Shown here: one piece after another, positions 42,244-48,116 of the stretch
Layout of the letters: each line of letters begins with the position of its first letter
How positions within the stretch are numbered: position 1 is the first letter of the stretch
Source: an uncultured archaeon
GTDB lineage: Archaea; Asgardarchaeota; Thorarchaeia; Thorarchaeales; Thorarchaeaceae
Length of the DNA: 64,000 nt
NCBI GenBank assembly: GCA_964558645.1
Contig: CAZLEV010000013.1
Span: 1 to 64,000 of the forward strand
Direction: 5' to 3'
Translations under genes and position numbers: made by a program
Notes under the pieces: model-generated
Databases searched by the model: none
What the model was told of the DNA's origin: nothing
What the model saw: the letters and a program-made list of their open reading frames with translations, nothing else

Positions 42244-43119
42244 CTATATTCCGAGCTTCTCTGCCACAGGATCTAGAGAGACACGGTTGAGTTCAAATCC
42301 AAGAGGTTCTGGGTCTAGTCCCATAGCAGCACCGAGAATCTGAGTGACAAAGAGCGCGGGGAGCTCAAGCGACTCACCTTTATCATCTTCCATGCCAAGG
42401 ACTTGCACATCAAACTGTGTGTGACAGGCAGGGCAGTTAGTAACAACACAGTCCGCACCAGCTTCTCTTGCAGACATCATCTTCTCCTTCAGTATGCTGG
42501 TGGCCACCTCTTCACTAGAAATGAGCAGGGGAGAACCGCAACATCTGAGTTTCAGGCCCCAAGGAACACTTCTCGCTCCTGTAATCTCAAGTAATTCGTC
42601 AACTTTGCGTGGTAGTTCTGGATCATCAAACGCAGCCACTTGCGATGGCCGTATCAGGTGGCATCCTGGATGAAATGCTATCTTCAGGCCATCAAGGGGG
42701 TGTACAATGCTGTTTCTTATTTGATCCCTGAGGTCGTAAAGAACATCTACGAAGTGTCTGATCTTCACATCGCCCGAGTACTTTAAACCTAGTTTCTCAA
42801 GTGCTACATTCACTTGTTGTGTCTGTTCTTCGTGATTGTGTAGAACATGGTCAACATCCCTGAGAGAGCCGAAGCATCCATTGCATGGAGTAACGATGTC
42901 ATGGCCACGACTCCCTGCAAGCGCAATGTTGCGTCCTGAGAGAGCCAACCAGCTTCGCTCATCAATAGACTTCAAAACCACAGTGCCGCAGCAAGAGGCC
43001 CCATCAAAGTCGAGCAACTCGATATCAAGGGCTTGAGCAACGGCTCTCATAGAACTCTCATAATTATTGAAACGATTAGGAATTGCACACCCCAAGAAAA
43101 CTTCATAGCTCTGGGTCAT
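42244..43119 (-). CDS. hdrB: Heterodisulfide reductase subunit B
   Basis: FLGC, SCCG, PCNGC, HPGCH, CCG, CPACH (two CCG domains). Confidence 0.92.
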   Translation of the reverse strand: MTQSYEVFLGCAIPNRFNNYESSMRAVAQALDIELLDFDGASCCGTVVLKSIDERSWLALSGRNIALAGSRGHDIVTPCNGCFGSLRDVDHVLHNHEEQTQQVNVALEKLGLKYSGDVKIRHFVDVLYDLRDQIRNSIVHPLDGLKIAFHPGCHLIRPSQVAAFDDPELPRKVDELLEITGARSVPWGLKLRCCGSPLLISSEEVATSILKEKMMSAREAGADCVVTNCPACHTQFDVQVLGMEDDKGESLELPALFVTQILGAAMGLDPEPLGFELNRVSLDPVAEKLGI

Positions 43120-43649
43120 TCTTCCTCATCCTCCTGCAGTTTCATGAGACCTGTTTCTTCGAAAATCTTCTGAGTGTCCTCAATATTCAGTGCAGGAACG
43201 TCTTCGAGTCCCAAATCTTCCCGTTCCCAATCTGTTGGTTCATAGAGCTTCCCAGTGTCATAGAGACCTTTTCGAGATACAACATACCCCTGAGGAGTAA
43301 TGCCCCTCTTGAATGCCATATTCTTGAGACCAAAAATGATGTCAGTGATGTCGATTCCCTGAGGACAACGCTCTTGGCATGTATAGCAGGTAGTGCAGAG
43401 CCAGACCATATCGGTCTCGAGGACTTCCTTCAGTCCAAATACGAGCATCCTCATGAGCTCATGGACTTGAACGTTAACTTTGTCGCTTACTGGACACCCA
43501 GCACTGCATTTTGCACATTGAAAGCAGGTGGTCAAATCTTGCCCTCCCAGTAGCTTCGCCGTTTCCTGAGTGAACTCTTTGTCTAGAGTAGAGAACTCCT
43601 TGCCTTCGAAACTCTTGAACTGACCCCATGTTTCTGTCATGCATATCAC
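43116..43649 (-). CDS. hdrC: Heterodisulfide reductase subunit C
   Basis: CFQCAKCSAGCP, WLCTTCYTCQERCPQ. Confidence 0.92.
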   Translation of the reverse strand: MICMTETWGQFKSFEGKEFSTLDKEFTQETAKLLGGQDLTTCFQCAKCSAGCPVSDKVNVQVHELMRMLVFGLKEVLETDMVWLCTTCYTCQERCPQGIDITDIIFGLKNMAFKRGITPQGYVVSRKGLYDTGKLYEPTDWEREDLGLEDVPALNIEDTQKIFEETGLMKLQEDEEE

Positions 43650-44026
43650 TTCTTGGGTCTGCTGACACTCAGGTTTCGTTTCTTGCTCCGCTTATATCAA
43701 TAGCGTCGGAGGCAGATGCAGTTGGTGCATAGGGGACAGAAACCGCAAGCGGGCATTCTCTCGATGCTCCATTGCGTTGCTAACATTGAACTCGTACAGT
43801 TCTGATTCGTGATGATTCTCTTGGATTTGTACACTACAGTGATTCCGTGACTTATGCAAGTCAACGCGATACAATGGCGCCATGTAATCCTGGGGAAACT
43901 GTGTATAGGAATAGCATTTCTCAAGAAGATTGCTTTGATGCGACCTGTCACAAGATTTCAAACAGTTGAATGAGTGATCTGGAAACGAATCAGGGCAACA
44001 CGACTGCCAGAGAGGTGACACTGACA

Positions 44027-44089
44027 ATGGCAAAGGATAACAAGGCAAAGAAGACCACCGACGAGAAGAAGCAGAGGCCGAAGAAGTAA
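44027..44089 (+). CDS. 20-aa Lys-rich microprotein copy 1 (MAKDNKAKKTTDEKKQRPKK)
   Basis: GAGGTGA SD 8 nt upstream; paralog at 44530. Confidence 0.65.
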   Translation: MAKDNKAKKTTDEKKQRPKK

Positions 44090-44137
44090 CGGCGGATGTG
44101 AAGTTCACACATCACTCAGAACAATATAGAGGAGGGA

Positions 44138-44155
44138 GGCCAGCACGAACTGGCC
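44138..44155. terminator. Hairpin GGCCAG-cacgaa-CTGGCC followed by a pyrimidine run
   Basis: Stem identical to 44641-44658, loop differs. Confidence 0.5.
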
Positions 44156-44529
44156 AATCTCTCTATCTAGAACCCACCGTCCGGTTCAGAGATAGAATTC
44201 GATGACTGTTATCCACCCAGTAGGCTATTCTTGGTGACAGATTGGTTGGCATGGTATTACTCTGATTGAGTCAATATCAGAGCTGATTAGTGTGATTCTG
44301 AACCTACAAGAGAGGATTCTGCTGAAGACCGAGAGTACAATAAGATGCATGCTATAGCGAATTAATCGAGCATTATTGGGTGCGCAAATTGAGGGACGAC
44401 AGCGTATACGATTAGCAGTGTTTCTGTTACGTTGCCCCAAGCAGACTGTGTCCACAATCTCTTCAGGGCATTGTGGAACTGCAGCACGCTACCAGGAGCA
44501 ACATGACTGCCACAGAGGTGACACTAATA

Positions 44530-44592
44530 ATGGCAAAGGACAAGAAGGGAAAGAAGACCACCGACGAGAAGAAGAAGAAACCAAAGAAATAA
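44530..44592 (+). CDS. 20-aa Lys-rich microprotein copy 2 (MAKDKKGKKTTDEKKKKPKK)
   Basis: GAGGTGA SD 8 nt upstream; same length and stop position as copy 1. Confidence 0.65.
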   Translation: MAKDKKGKKTTDEKKKKPKK

Positions 44593-44640
44593 CGACACCT
44601 CTGGTTTTTTCCATTGATCTACTAATACTTGGAGCATAAA

Positions 44641-44658
44641 GGCCAGTGAAGGCTGGCC
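44641..44658. terminator. Hairpin GGCCAG-tgaagg-CTGGCC between the convergent microprotein and hdrA-mvhD genes
   Basis: 5 nt beyond the hdrA-mvhD stop; conserved stem. Confidence 0.5.
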
Positions 44659-44663
44659 AATCT

Positions 44664-47600
44664 CTATCTCTTTCTAAGCGGGCTCGGCCCGAGTTTCTCA
44701 ACGAGCTCGGAGAGTTCTTTGACCTTCTCCGCCCAAATGGGGCCTTCACTGGCACTTATCTGTGTGAATTGCAGACGCTCCGGTTCTAAGCCAGCCTTTT
44801 CAACTATTTTCTTGGCTATTGCATATCTTCTCTCAAAGGCCACATTGCCATCAACGTAGTGGCAGTCGCCGAAGTGACAACCCGATATCCAGACCATATC
44901 AGCTCCCTGTCGAAAAGCCTCCAGTATGTGGGTGACACTCACTCTCCCGGTACACATCACACGGATATCGCGGACCGTAGGTGGCTGCTGAAACCTTGAT
45001 ACACCGGCGCTATCGGCCCCGGCGTACGAACACCAGTTGCAGACTATTGTAAGGATTCGTGGTTGGTTCGCAGGCATGTCAGAGAGAGCTGCGCGGATTT
45101 GAGCCAGAATCTGGTCATCTGTGAAGTGTTTCATCGTGATGGCACCAGCGGGACAACCAGCAGCACACTTCCCACAACCCTGACAGAGTACAGGATTCGA
45201 CATGGCATAGTCATGACCCCCATCGCCCGGGATCACCTCAATAGCGTTGTACGAGCAGTTGATCTCGCAAGTACCACAGCCAACACAGACCTCGGGGTCA
45301 ACAACTGAAACAATCGCCTCAGCCTTCCTTATGCCACTAACAAGAGGTATGAGAGCACGAGCGGCCGCACCTCGACCCTGTGCGATTGCTTCATCAATCG
45401 GTTTGGGAGCAGTTGCAGTTCCGGCTACGTAGACACCATCAGTCTGGAAATCAACGGGCCTGAGCTTTGGATGTGCCTCCATGAAGAATCCCGACATGTT
45501 CGTGGGAATCTTGAAGATCTCGCCCAGATCCTTGTTTGTTTCACAAGGAACCATTGCGGTTGCCAGAATTGCATAATCAACGTCCAAGTTGAGTTTCGCG
45601 CCGAGAATCTGGTCCAACACCTCAACACGTACCGCAGTGGAATGACCCTTCTTCACTTCAGGAGGGCTATCCTTATCGAATCGGATGAAGACAACTCCCC
45701 TCTTTCGTGCATCCCGGTACTTGTCTTCAGCCGCATAGTGGACCCTTAGGTCACGATAGAGATGGAAGACTCGGGACTCAGGGCGTTTCTCCAAGAGCTC
45801 CAGTGTGTGTTCGAGAGCGACAGTACAACATATCCCTGAACACCAGGTTCGAGCGCCCTCAAGGGACTCATCCTCACGGGAACCAGCACAATGAATCACA
45901 GCATAGGTCCCATCGACAGGAAGACCATCCTCATTGATTCTACGGTTGAATTCTTCCTCAGTAATGACCTCGGGAATCTTCTTGAATCCATAGAGACCCT
46001 CTTCCTCCAATGATTGTGCGCCTGTTGCAACGATTACAACCCCCACTTTGAGGTCCGTCTTCTTCTTGCCGGTCTTGATGACCACCTCGAAGTCACCAAT
46101 AGAACCCTTAGCGTCGACAACTTCTGATTCGAGCATCAAATCGATGTTTTCGATGTTAGATATCTCATTTCGAAGCTCCTCAACAACATCGGAGGTCGAC
46201 CTGAAATCGAAGTTAACAGTTGCAAGACTGTTCAGATATCCACCGACTCTATCCTTCTTCTCAATGAGATAGACCTTGAAGCCCTTCTCGGCAATTGCCT
46301 TCGCAGCAGACATCCCCGCCACACCAGCACCGATGACAAGAGCACTCGGTTCGATATCGGTGACGGCCTCTTCCTGCGGCTCCAGTAGCCTAGACTTAGC
46401 CACAGCCATTCTGACAAGATCCATCGCCTTTGAAGTCGCCTCATCCTTTGCGCCCTGATGAATCCACGAGCAATGTTCTCGAATATTGGCCATTTCAAAG
46501 AGGTACTTGTTTAGTCCTGCTTCCTCGATGGTTGAGCGAAACAGCGGCTCATGCGTACGGGGTGTGCAAGATGCAACAACGACACGGTTGAGATTGTGTT
46601 CTTTGATGGCATCCTTGATCACCACTTGAGCGTCAGAGGAACAAGAATAGAGCAGGTTCTCGGTATAGACAACTCCCGGAAGACTATCTGCATAGTTCCT
46701 CACTTCATCAACATCAACCGTTCCCGCAATATTGATACCACAAGAGCAAACGAAGACACCAACACGAGGGTCAGCCGTCATCATGTCGAGATCGGCCTCT
46801 GTCAGCTCCTCGGTCTCACGTCGCTCTGGAAGGCCGGTGTCCTGTATCGCTAATGCCGCAGCGGCGCTACCTTGAGCCACAGAATCAGGGATATCTTTTG
46901 GTTGATTAACGGAGCCACACATGTATATCCCTGGAACCGTCGTCATCACGCTCTCGATGTGGCCATCGGGGCCATGCACAAAGCCGTATTGATCCACATC
47001 TATTCCCAGAGTCTCATACAGTTCTGCATTCTCGTTTGGTACCATAGCTGGACAGAGAACCACTAGGTCATAGTGGTCATCCAGAACTTCATGCCCCTTC
47101 GCATCGCTATGTCGTACAATCAGTCCTCGGGTCTTCGGGTCCTCGATGATCTCACTGGGAAGACCCTTCACGTAGTTGATTCCGTACTCATTCTCGCCCC
47201 GTACAAGAAACTCCTCAAATCCCTTGCCGAAGGCACGCATATCATTATAGAGGAGATCGATATGTACCTCTGGCGTGTGCTCTTTGGTGATTATTGCCTC
47301 TTTCGTAGCATAGGTACAACATATCTTTGAACAATAGGCACAATGATTCACATCGCGACTGCCCACACACTGGATAAAGGCAATCCTGTGGGGTTCAAGT
47401 CCATCCGAGGGGCGCATGACAACACCTTCGGTCGGACCACTGGCTGAAACCATTCTCTCGTATTCAAGAGCAGTCACAACGTTGGGGTATCGACCGTAAC
47501 CATACTCTTTGACCTCTGATGGATCAAGAAGATGATAGCCAGTTGCAAGGATGATTGCCCCTGCGTTGATTTCGATGGTTTCGTCCGGGATGGAGAAATC

Positions 47601-48116
47601 GATTGCTTCAGCCCTGCAGCTGTTGACACACGTCATGCACTGAATACAGTTCTCGATATCTATGGTCGCAACATTGGGTACTGCCTGTGGGAACGGAATG
47701 TACGACGCCTTGCGCATCTTCAGGCCCATGTCGTATTCATTTGGAACTTCAATGGGACAGACACGCTGGCAGTCACCACACCCAGTACACTTCTCCGGGT
47801 CAACTCGGCGGGTATGCTTCAATACGTTCACTGTGAAGTCACCCTGAACACCGGCGACTTCAATCACCTCAGAATAGGACAATATCTCGATGTTGGGATG
47901 ACGGCTTGCATCAACCATCCATGGTCCCATGATACACATGGAACAGTCCAACGTTGGAAAGGTCTTGTCTAGTTGAGCCATATGGCCTCCTATGGACGGT
48001 TCACGCTCCACCAAGAATACTTTGACACCCATATCTGCAAGGTCTAGGGATGCGCGGATGCCTGCGATTCCTGCACCGATGATTACGATTGGCTTTCCTG
48101 CCATTACCGTGTTCAC
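44664..48116 (-). CDS. hdrA: Large HdrA-like flavoprotein (two FAD modules) fused to C-terminal MvhD [2Fe-2S] domain
   Basis: IIGAGIAG, KTFPTLDCSMC, QPKDIPD, VGVFVCSCG, SCTPRTHE, second VIGAGVAG, CVGCGTC, MvhD motifs CNWCSY, RVMCTGRV, GCHFGDCHY. Confidence 0.93.
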   Translation of the reverse strand: MNTVMAGKPIVIIGAGIAGIRASLDLADMGVKVFLVEREPSIGGHMAQLDKTFPTLDCSMCIMGPWMVDASRHPNIEILSYSEVIEVAGVQGDFTVNVLKHTRRVDPEKCTGCGDCQRVCPIEVPNEYDMGLKMRKASYIPFPQAVPNVATIDIENCIQCMTCVNSCRAEAIDFSIPDETIEINAGAIILATGYHLLDPSEVKEYGYGRYPNVVTALEYERMVSASGPTEGVVMRPSDGLEPHRIAFIQCVGSRDVNHCAYCSKICCTYATKEAIITKEHTPEVHIDLLYNDMRAFGKGFEEFLVRGENEYGINYVKGLPSEIIEDPKTRGLIVRHSDAKGHEVLDDHYDLVVLCPAMVPNENAELYETLGIDVDQYGFVHGPDGHIESVMTTVPGIYMCGSVNQPKDIPDSVAQGSAAAALAIQDTGLPERRETEELTEADLDMMTADPRVGVFVCSCGINIAGTVDVDEVRNYADSLPGVVYTENLLYSCSSDAQVVIKDAIKEHNLNRVVVASCTPRTHEPLFRSTIEEAGLNKYLFEMANIREHCSWIHQGAKDEATSKAMDLVRMAVAKSRLLEPQEEAVTDIEPSALVIGAGVAGMSAAKAIAEKGFKVYLIEKKDRVGGYLNSLATVNFDFRSTSDVVEELRNEISNIENIDLMLESEVVDAKGSIGDFEVVIKTGKKKTDLKVGVVIVATGAQSLEEEGLYGFKKIPEVITEEEFNRRINEDGLPVDGTYAVIHCAGSREDESLEGARTWCSGICCTVALEHTLELLEKRPESRVFHLYRDLRVHYAAEDKYRDARKRGVVFIRFDKDSPPEVKKGHSTAVRVEVLDQILGAKLNLDVDYAILATAMVPCETNKDLGEIFKIPTNMSGFFMEAHPKLRPVDFQTDGVYVAGTATAPKPIDEAIAQGRGAAARALIPLVSGIRKAEAIVSVVDPEVCVGCGTCEINCSYNAIEVIPGDGGHDYAMSNPVLCQGCGKCAAGCPAGAITMKHFTDDQILAQIRAALSDMPANQPRILTIVCNWCSYAGADSAGVSRFQQPPTVRDIRVMCTGRVSVTHILEAFRQGADMVWISGCHFGDCHYVDGNVAFERRYAIAKKIVEKAGLEPERLQFTQISASEGPIWAEKVKELSELVEKLGPSPLRKR

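Follow-up and report, generated by a model that had tools for sequence, protein, structure and literature searches.

Within a 64,000-nucleotide stretch of an uncultured archaeon of the Thorarchaeaceae (GCA_964558645.1, contig CAZLEV010000013.1, positions 1 to 64,000; hereafter the window), the gap between the hdrC-like and hdrA-mvhD genes of an Hdr cluster holds two open reading frames (ORFs) of 20 codons each, and both are almost certainly real protein-coding genes for small lysine-rich peptides. Judged from comparative genomics, they belong to an unannotated family of Thorarchaeia micro-genes that is duplicated in the source genus, and this family forms a branch of a broader class of Lys-rich micro-proteins that has been overlooked. 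As to what the peptide does, the reading we prefer, with a confidence that does not go beyond even, is that it is an unstructured polycation that would bind nucleic acid through its charge, much as a free-standing tail of a histone or of H1 might. Throughout, G000 denotes the source genome and G001 and G002 genomes of the same genus; g1 is the source genus and g2 to g16 are the other genera of the family; C marks contigs of G000 and L marks loci.

Results

Copy 1 lies at 44027-44089 and copy 2 at 44530-44592, both on the forward strand and both ending in TAA, and each start codon stands 8 nucleotides behind a GAGGTGA Shine-Dalgarno (SD) sequence (44012-44018 and 44515-44521, forward strand). 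A first-pass annotation made from the letters had described exactly this arrangement, two 20-residue Lys-rich ORFs with a common SD and spacer, 503 bp apart. The two genes sit in a 97-nucleotide direct repeat (43995-44091 and 44498-44594; 88% identity, 503-bp spacing), and the cassette occurs only twice in the 3.6-Mb assembly (blastn E-value 7e-28; next match 0.023). Seven codons differ between the copies: three differences are synonymous (D4, P18 and K20, the same three that the annotation had named) and four are replacements (N5K, A7G, Q16K and R17K). The predicted net charges are about +6 for copy 1 and about +8 for copy 2, with an isoelectric point (pI) of 10.2 for both; lysine makes up 40-55% of the 20 residues, three residues are acidic, each peptide has either one arginine or none, and hydrophobic and aromatic residues are absent. 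The genome has 587 SD-led ORFs with 10-50 codons; by Lys+Arg share, copy 2 is the top-ranked of these and copy 1 takes eighth place.

Purifying selection on the peptide emerges clearly from comparing these genes with one another and with their relatives. Between copy 1 and copy 2 the ORFs are 87% identical, whereas the flanks (160 nucleotides upstream and 45 downstream, taken together) are 51% identical against an aligner baseline of 46%, in agreement with the earlier description of the DNA beyond the stop codons as divergent; for the ORF pair, the proportion of changed replacement sites (pN) is 0.08 and that of changed synonymous sites (pS) is 0.41. Variable columns across the six g1 genes number 2, 2 and 10 at codon positions 1, 2 and 3 (10/14 third-position). 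Summed over four pairs (G000/G001 copy 1, G000/G002 copy 2, G010/G024 and G086/G088) there are 9 synonymous and 0 replacement changes, and the G000/G002 pair of copy 1 shows 5 synonymous and 4 replacement changes. The copy 1 protein is identical in G000 and G001 despite 3 synonymous changes, with an ortholog also in G002, and the copy 2 protein is identical in G000, G001 and G002, although the DNA upstream of it is merely 68% identical between G000 and G002. Lengths of 17, 18, 19, 20 and 21 amino acids occur among relatives, all of them in frame from the shared start to the C-terminal PKK, and the search patterns that recovered them allowed any spacing and did not enforce frame; M1, K3 and the terminal PKK are invariant, and the middle varies freely in length and sequence. 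Neither of the other two forward frames holds a conserved start-to-stop ORF. The claim that these are real, translated micro-genes under selection thus stands as to genes and selection, given the conserved ORF found in related genomes of six genera, length changes that are always in frame, a conserved layout, and a comparison of orthologs that yields third-position bias and pN below pS; translation we infer.

The family to which both copies belong, which we call type B (peptides that begin M-x-K and end KPKK, encoded in a stand-alone cassette), comprises 21 genes in 18 of 86 Thorarchaeia family genomes and 6 of 16 genera (g1, g2, g3, g6, g9 and g15), counts that are lower bounds since the patterns were strict and the metagenome-assembled genomes (MAGs) are incomplete; a pattern search also found a look-alike in one Jordarchaeum record. 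Lys accounts for 46% of the residues in the family, Gln for 12%, Pro for 10%, Ala for 5% and Arg for 1%; aromatic residues, Leu and Ile are absent, and almost nothing is aliphatic. In the absence of hydrophobic and aromatic residues no fold or hydrophobic anchor should be possible, and the peptide would therefore act almost solely by electrostatics. By residue order the window peptide is significantly similar to the g9 and g2 members and not to those of g6, so its family link with the latter rests on the shared ends and the cassette layout. Type-B genes neighbour Hdr genes in g1 and g9, a TetR and a flavodoxin-like gene in g6, an FtsZ-like gene in g15 and others in g2 and g3 (neighbours outside the window were named by eye), a distribution which shows, at the level of gene order, that the cassette is mobile between neighbourhoods. 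We also considered whether the ORF might be an attenuator leader or upstream ORF, and rejected this identity: the downstream gene in the window is convergent, and elsewhere the downstream genes vary and often lie on the opposite strand. The division into types A (described below) and B, and the test of the Hdr association, are new here.

Database searches placed these peptides in no named family. In a Pfam scan neither window peptide matches at E≤1, and none of the five scannable type-B members does so at E≤10; NCBIfam and PDB-chain sequence searches gave no match; five type-B and two acidic peptides looked up in a collection of 15 billion proteins were all absent from it; literature searches on the peptides and on small proteins of Thorarchaeia turned up no account of these genes; and among viral contigs the single match falls inside a long ORF of unrelated DNA. 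The window peptides do not show the arginine clusters above 50% that mark protamines, having 0-1 Arg each. Similar poly-Lys micro-genes are present in bacterial contigs, and we treat these as a compositional class rather than as homologs. Among bacterial metagenome contigs, L124 (6122-6175, forward strand) and L126 carry a 17-codon, near-pure Lys/Ala ORF with a strong SD about 240 nucleotides upstream of a lysA-like (diaminopimelate decarboxylase) gene, which could function as an attenuator leader for lysine instead of encoding a peptide that stands alone. On three candidate-phyla-like contigs (L121, L125 and L127), poly-Lys genes of 13-14 codons lie between serS and secA and have a near-consensus sigma-70 promoter, an SD and a terminator. 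A tblastn search of the source genome also met a Lys/Glu/Pro unit of 4 residues repeated in a long tandem array with a 12-nucleotide period (C1:6244-6558, forward strand).

Size and charge would also suit a tiny lineage-specific ribosomal or ribosome-associated protein that fills a pocket in rRNA, as eL41/eS32 or bTHX do, and the invariant ends (M1, K3 and PKK) could mark a defined site. An 18-codon, Lys-rich, type-B-like ORF does lie between uL15 and secY at L095 (G110, of another Asgard family), and eL41 itself was not found in the genome with the Pfam model PF05162. We nevertheless consider this reading unlikely. The searches above returned no Pfam, NCBIfam or PDB-chain match, the middle of the peptide varies freely, and a Lys/Gln-rich peptide is unlike the Arg-rich, hydrophobically anchored eL41 and bTHX; moreover, the distribution is patchy, a duplication has been retained, and no Thorarchaeia locus has ribosomal neighbours. 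The earlier suggestion of an eL41/eS32-like protein does not survive as a statement of membership, since there is no Pfam match (the Ribosomal_L41 profile, PF05162, has no match in the genome), at most one Arg and no hydrophobic residue.

Each copy appears to be a complete transcription unit, with a TATA-like box, a hairpin leader, an SD, the ORF and a 3' hairpin, from which we infer transcription; the box and the leader, like the antisense orientation to the hdr genes, go beyond what the first-pass annotation had described. The TATA-like boxes lie on the forward strand at 43903-43907 (GTATA core, -124 from the ATG) for copy 1 and 44404-44408 (-126) for copy 2; a GTATA box is unchanged 118-127 nucleotides upstream of the ATG in 8/8 g1 and g9 cassettes, and in the remaining type-B genera the box is a canonical TTTATA, located between -124 and -137. 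The copy 1 leader (43930-43998, forward strand) is predicted to form a single long stem-loop that starts about 27 nucleotides after the TATA-like box, as archaeal promoter geometry has it, and the copy 2 leader (44431-44502, forward strand) folds in the same way. The SD is unchanged in all 21 type-B genes, and GAGGTGA precedes the first ATG in only 12 of 1720 long ORFs of the genome. At the 3' end, copy 1 has a hairpin with a pyrimidine tail (44126-44168, forward strand), a putative terminator (z-score -3.5; 0 of 200 shuffles fold as well), and its counterpart in copy 2 (44641-44672, forward strand), a weak single fold (z-score -0.9), overlaps the stop codon of hdrA-mvhD. The copy 2 hairpin, within which there is a terminator-like match on the minus strand (44658-44641), is possibly a bidirectional terminator. 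The shared 3' hairpin noticed at first pass is thus present, at 44137-44168 and 44640-44671.

Could the selected product be an RNA, one that is structured or that regulates the hdr operon in antisense, with the ORF incidental? Besides the conserved promoter, the leaders bear on this question. In the six g1 leaders 88% of cells are paired and 7 of 16 pairs have changed on both sides, and pairing falls to 30-50% when partners are slid; because this structure was derived from the same six sequences that were used to score it, and single-sequence folds give weak z-scores (-0.04 to -2.3), we take the covariation as modest support. RNAalifold found no common consensus structure for the leaders of g2, g3, g6 and g15. 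A model of the g6 leader matches g3 leaders (E-values 2e-4 and 1e-3) and none of those from g1, g9, g2 or g15; within g6, and between g6 and g3, a type-B leader of about 90 nucleotides keeps both sequence and shape (L231-L237 and L172/L174/L175) and is a possible cis-regulatory RNA. The unit is, in addition, antisense to hdr, with its 3' end over the hdrA stop codon. Against these points, the ORF is far better kept than the leader and shows third-position bias and in-frame indels, the SD and start codon are invariant, most copies lie far from hdr, and an Rfam search of the window copy returned chance matches only. We judge an RNA product very unlikely.

In the window, both micro-ORFs are antisense to their neighbours, the hdrC-like 4Fe-4S subunit (43116-43640, minus strand; Pfam Fer4_8, E-value 1.8e-11) and the hdrA-mvhD fusion (44664-48116, minus strand; Pfam FlpD, E-value 2.5e-45, with Pyr_redox_2 and Fer4). 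To see how this junction looks elsewhere, we surveyed 70 family genomes with hdrC as the anchor. In 62 of them hdrA-mvhD and hdrC are 6-26 bp apart, without an insert; three g1 genomes have a gap of 1027-1044 bp with two copies each, and two g9 genomes have gaps of 526 and 828 bp with one 17-codon copy each. From these alignments, g1 carries a tandem duplication of a cassette of about 510 bp that predates the split of its three species, or of the genus. Homology between the 3' tail of copy 1 and the sequence that spans the hdrA stop codon locates the duplication junction. Linkage to Hdr is confined to these two genera (5 genomes), and in 13 of the 18 type-B genomes the gene is elsewhere; a tree of HdrA/B/C fragments is compatible with a single origin of the g1 and g9 inserts as well as with separate ones, and with insertion as well as with repeated loss. 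On the contig edge of another g1 genome, a third, near-identical copy-2 cassette adjoins the hdrA end (L012, on contig C144 of G002), which is probably a redundant assembly or strain variant. At L043 (G010) the gap up to hdrA contains, about 300 nucleotides past the micro-gene, additional DNA that is GC-rich, has inverted repeats and is absent from the sister genome G024.

A motif at 43691-43707 (minus strand), about 50 nucleotides upstream of the hdrC start, is a putative TATA-like promoter for the split-off hdrC-hdrB pair. It is found at the same place in g1, g9 and two g10 genomes and has one exact copy in the genome, and it probably serves as the hdrC-hdrB promoter; a Xer/dif-like identity was rejected, as the inverted left arm is absent. 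With a promoter of its own for hdrC-hdrB, an insert among the hdr genes could be tolerated. The two g10 genomes (L077 and L070, in G051 and G053) have the same hdrC promoter motif as the window and, at the same hdrA-hdrC junction, an unrelated antisense gene for a protein of about 200 codons that looks LURP-one/scramblase-like by eye.

The neighbourhood raises the possibility that the peptide serves the Hdr/hydrogenase complex, either as an assembly factor or, in line with the partner of acidic redox complexes proposed at first pass, as a polycation that associates with it. The shared position in five genomes of g1 and g9, with a single origin compatible with the tree, would fit such a role. 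Yet most type-B genes lie away from Hdr, hdrA and hdrC stand close together without an insert in 62/70 genomes, an unrelated gene occupies the same junction in g10, and the micro-genes are on the opposite strand with a separate promoter. Because most Thorarchaeia run the same hdrA-hdrC operon without any insert, we consider a redox-partner role extremely unlikely, and that the cassette lies among the hdr genes is probably a coincidence. The Lys-rich N-terminus that the first-pass annotation quoted is indeed present in the hydrogenase large subunit, but no special resemblance follows from it: a histone and a likely eS26 of the same genome also begin Lys-rich, so the likeness is generic.

Type B has a paralog, type A, with a MAKKKP start, a poly-Lys end and an Ala-rich composition. 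In g3, g6, g15 and one g7 genome, type A lies 130-225 nucleotides behind an acidic micro-gene of Asp/Trp repeats, and such basic/acidic pairs are adjacent in Loki-like and other Asgard genomes too. Ten genomes hold both types, so type B is a paralog and not a displaced type A, and the idea that it had moved away from an acidic gene was rejected on this ground. The source genome has an unannotated acidic micro-gene of 30 amino acids on another contig than the twin ORFs (C8:148260-148352, forward strand, equal to L183:4261-4353; 73% Asp/Glu, spaced Phe/Trp, a strong SD and its own 3' hairpin). Divergent from it runs a very basic gene of 277 amino acids (L183:3137-3967, minus strand), which 60 of the 86 family genomes possess; the other end of this gene is flanked by another acidic ORF, of 38 amino acids (C8:146996), and no basic ORF was found beside the acidic gene or the 277-residue gene on C8. 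A model of the 277-residue protein predicted from its single sequence is poor, and an alignment-based model is confident (predicted local distance difference test, pLDDT, 90). This model has a weak PaaX match (Foldseek E-value 8.7e-3, template modelling score 0.23) and generic three-helix-bundle matches, so "PaaX/ChrB-like" is a loose label for it.

These genes suggest another reading, in which the main partner of the basic peptide is the poly-acidic Asp/Trp micro-protein, the two forming a disordered polyelectrolyte pair whose mutual titration would tune the PaaX/ChrB-like protein. We regard this as credible though improbable. It draws on the adjacency of type A and the acidic gene across Thorarchaeia and other Asgard genomes, and on a precedent in prothymosin-alpha with histone H1 (PMC7661507). 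The module is present in 18/18 type-B genomes against 60/86 overall, type B is the only basic peptide found in g1, g2 and g9, and in g4, g5 and g16, from which the 277-residue module is absent, no basic micro-gene was found. The co-occurrence has p 0.0006 by genome and p 0.21 by genus, related genomes not being independent. On the other side, no type-B gene is linked to the acidic one, the ten genomes that keep both types mark type B as a paralog, and in five genera with the acidic module (g8, g10, g12, g13 and g14) no basic peptide was found. Binding of nucleic acid and pairing with an acidic partner are compatible with each other.

Discussion

We favour the reading of type B as a nucleic-acid-binding polycation, the histone-tail-like option among those named at first pass, and envisage the following. 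An abundant, unstructured Lys-rich peptide would be made from a self-contained gene, with a TATA box, a stabilising 5' hairpin, a strong SD, 20 codons and a terminator hairpin. Its 6-8 net positive charges and fixed C-terminal KPKK would bind nucleic-acid phosphates without sequence specificity, such that the peptide would be the free-standing equivalent of a histone or H1 tail, neutralising and compacting DNA, and perhaps acting on RNA or polyphosphate as well. It may be buffered by the poly-acidic Asp/Trp peptide, whose gene is unlinked, the second copy may be kept for dosage or slight specialisation, and the place among the hdr genes would be an accident of insertion or retention. The strong SD, the 5' stem-loop, the dedicated terminator and the kept duplication together suggest high dosage, and a small, abundant polycation whose middle can vary so freely is more easily reconciled with neutralising nucleic acid in bulk than with a lock-and-key site. 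Also in favour of this reading, the Lys-rich tails of Asgard histones belong to proteins that localise to DNA; the residue order of type A matches the tail of the Asgard histone HLoB.1 better than shuffles do, at p<0.05, in 11 of 19 comparisons, among related and hence not independent sequences; the one canonical histone found in the source genome has no such tail; and Lys-rich KPAA peptides bind DNA in vitro.

Several observations weigh against this reading. The window peptides match the HLoB.1 tail in composition, with no clear match in residue order (p 0.12 and 0.22). Type B was found in 18/86 of the Thorarchaeia searched, a share to be read with the strict patterns and incomplete MAGs in mind, and with most of them lacking it, it does not qualify as a core protein of chromatin. 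The charge of the peptide is reduced by three acidic residues, and composition alone does not tell whether the target is DNA, rRNA, polyphosphate or an acidic protein.

The histones of the source genome were surveyed as well. A PF00808 search has a single match (C1:21564), a canonical histone without a Lys-rich tail. Two short histones with a truncated alpha3, of face-to-face-like type, escape PF00808 (C2:274382, forward strand, and C18:12753-12595, minus strand), and the one on C2 has a short Lys-rich N-terminal extension that resembles type A peptides. We speculate, while thinking it quite unlikely, that Lys-rich peptides of at least two paralog families serve as histone tails in trans, modulating chromatin as possible substrates of Asgard lysine acetyltransferases and sirtuins and chaperoned by the poly-acidic peptide. 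If this were true, such trans-tails would represent, among prokaryotes, a forerunner or an analogue of the system formed by the linker-histone H1 tail and prothymosin-alpha, hidden below the gene-calling cutoff.

Tryptic digestion would destroy type-B peptides, and as the five looked up are also absent from the protein collection, surveys of Asgard chromatin or ribosome proteins that start from predicted proteomes would miss them. If the peptides bind the ribosome, they would be new ribosomal components; for Hdr chemistry, the finding adds no new component. A 20-mer is cheap to synthesise, so that function is directly testable in vitro.

Comparison with known systems

The nearest likeness is to the tailed Asgard histones HLoB and HMpB, whose Lys-rich N-terminal tails of about 16-32 amino acids with >30% Lys are acetylated and DNA-localised (bioRxiv 10.64898/2026.07.02.735847). 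Type B shares with these tails the length range, a Lys content above 30%, a pI near theirs (10.3-10.5, against 10.2 for the window peptides), disorder and a MAK-type start. However, HLoB and HMpB have a histone fold, whereas type B is a free-standing 20-codon gene with a conserved stop; the HLoB.1 tail has Ala where type B has Asp, Gln or Thr, and acetylation and DNA localisation are known for the histones alone.

A second comparison is with bacterial proteins that are histone H1-like and rich in Lys, Ala and Pro, namely the chlamydial Hc1 and Hc2 and, in Pseudomonas, AlgP and PhaF. Lys-rich KPAA peptides of AlgP bind DNA in vitro, and PhaF likewise has a KPAA domain (PMC9239181). By analogy, all of these share with type B a low-complexity, Lys/Pro-rich polycation that would likely bind DNA or polyphosphate electrostatically. 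Type B differs in being ten times shorter, without repeats, without a folded N-terminal domain and with little Ala; instead of the long KPAA/PAKK repeat tract that marks H1-like proteins, it has one KPKK end and 5% Ala.

The small ribosomal proteins eL41/eS32 and bTHX resemble type B in size (20-26 amino acids), in strong basicity and in being easily overlooked by gene callers. eL41 is an Arg-rich helix with Trp/Met/Leu anchors, and bTHX is likewise Arg-rich with hydrophobic anchors; type B, in contrast, uses Lys rather than Arg, lacks any anchor of aromatic or hydrophobic residues, is free to vary in length, and is patchy and duplicated.

Finally, the source genome encodes a tiny polyanion as well as a tiny polycation, which recalls the disordered complex of prothymosin-alpha and linker histone H1 (PMC7661507). 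The window ORFs do not adjoin an Asp/Trp-repeat ORF, as the basic member of an Asgard acidic/basic pair does, the acidic gene being on C8. They differ from prothymosin-alpha and H1 in that the peptides are much shorter, there is no sequence homology and type B is unlinked to the polyanion gene; type A is linked to it.

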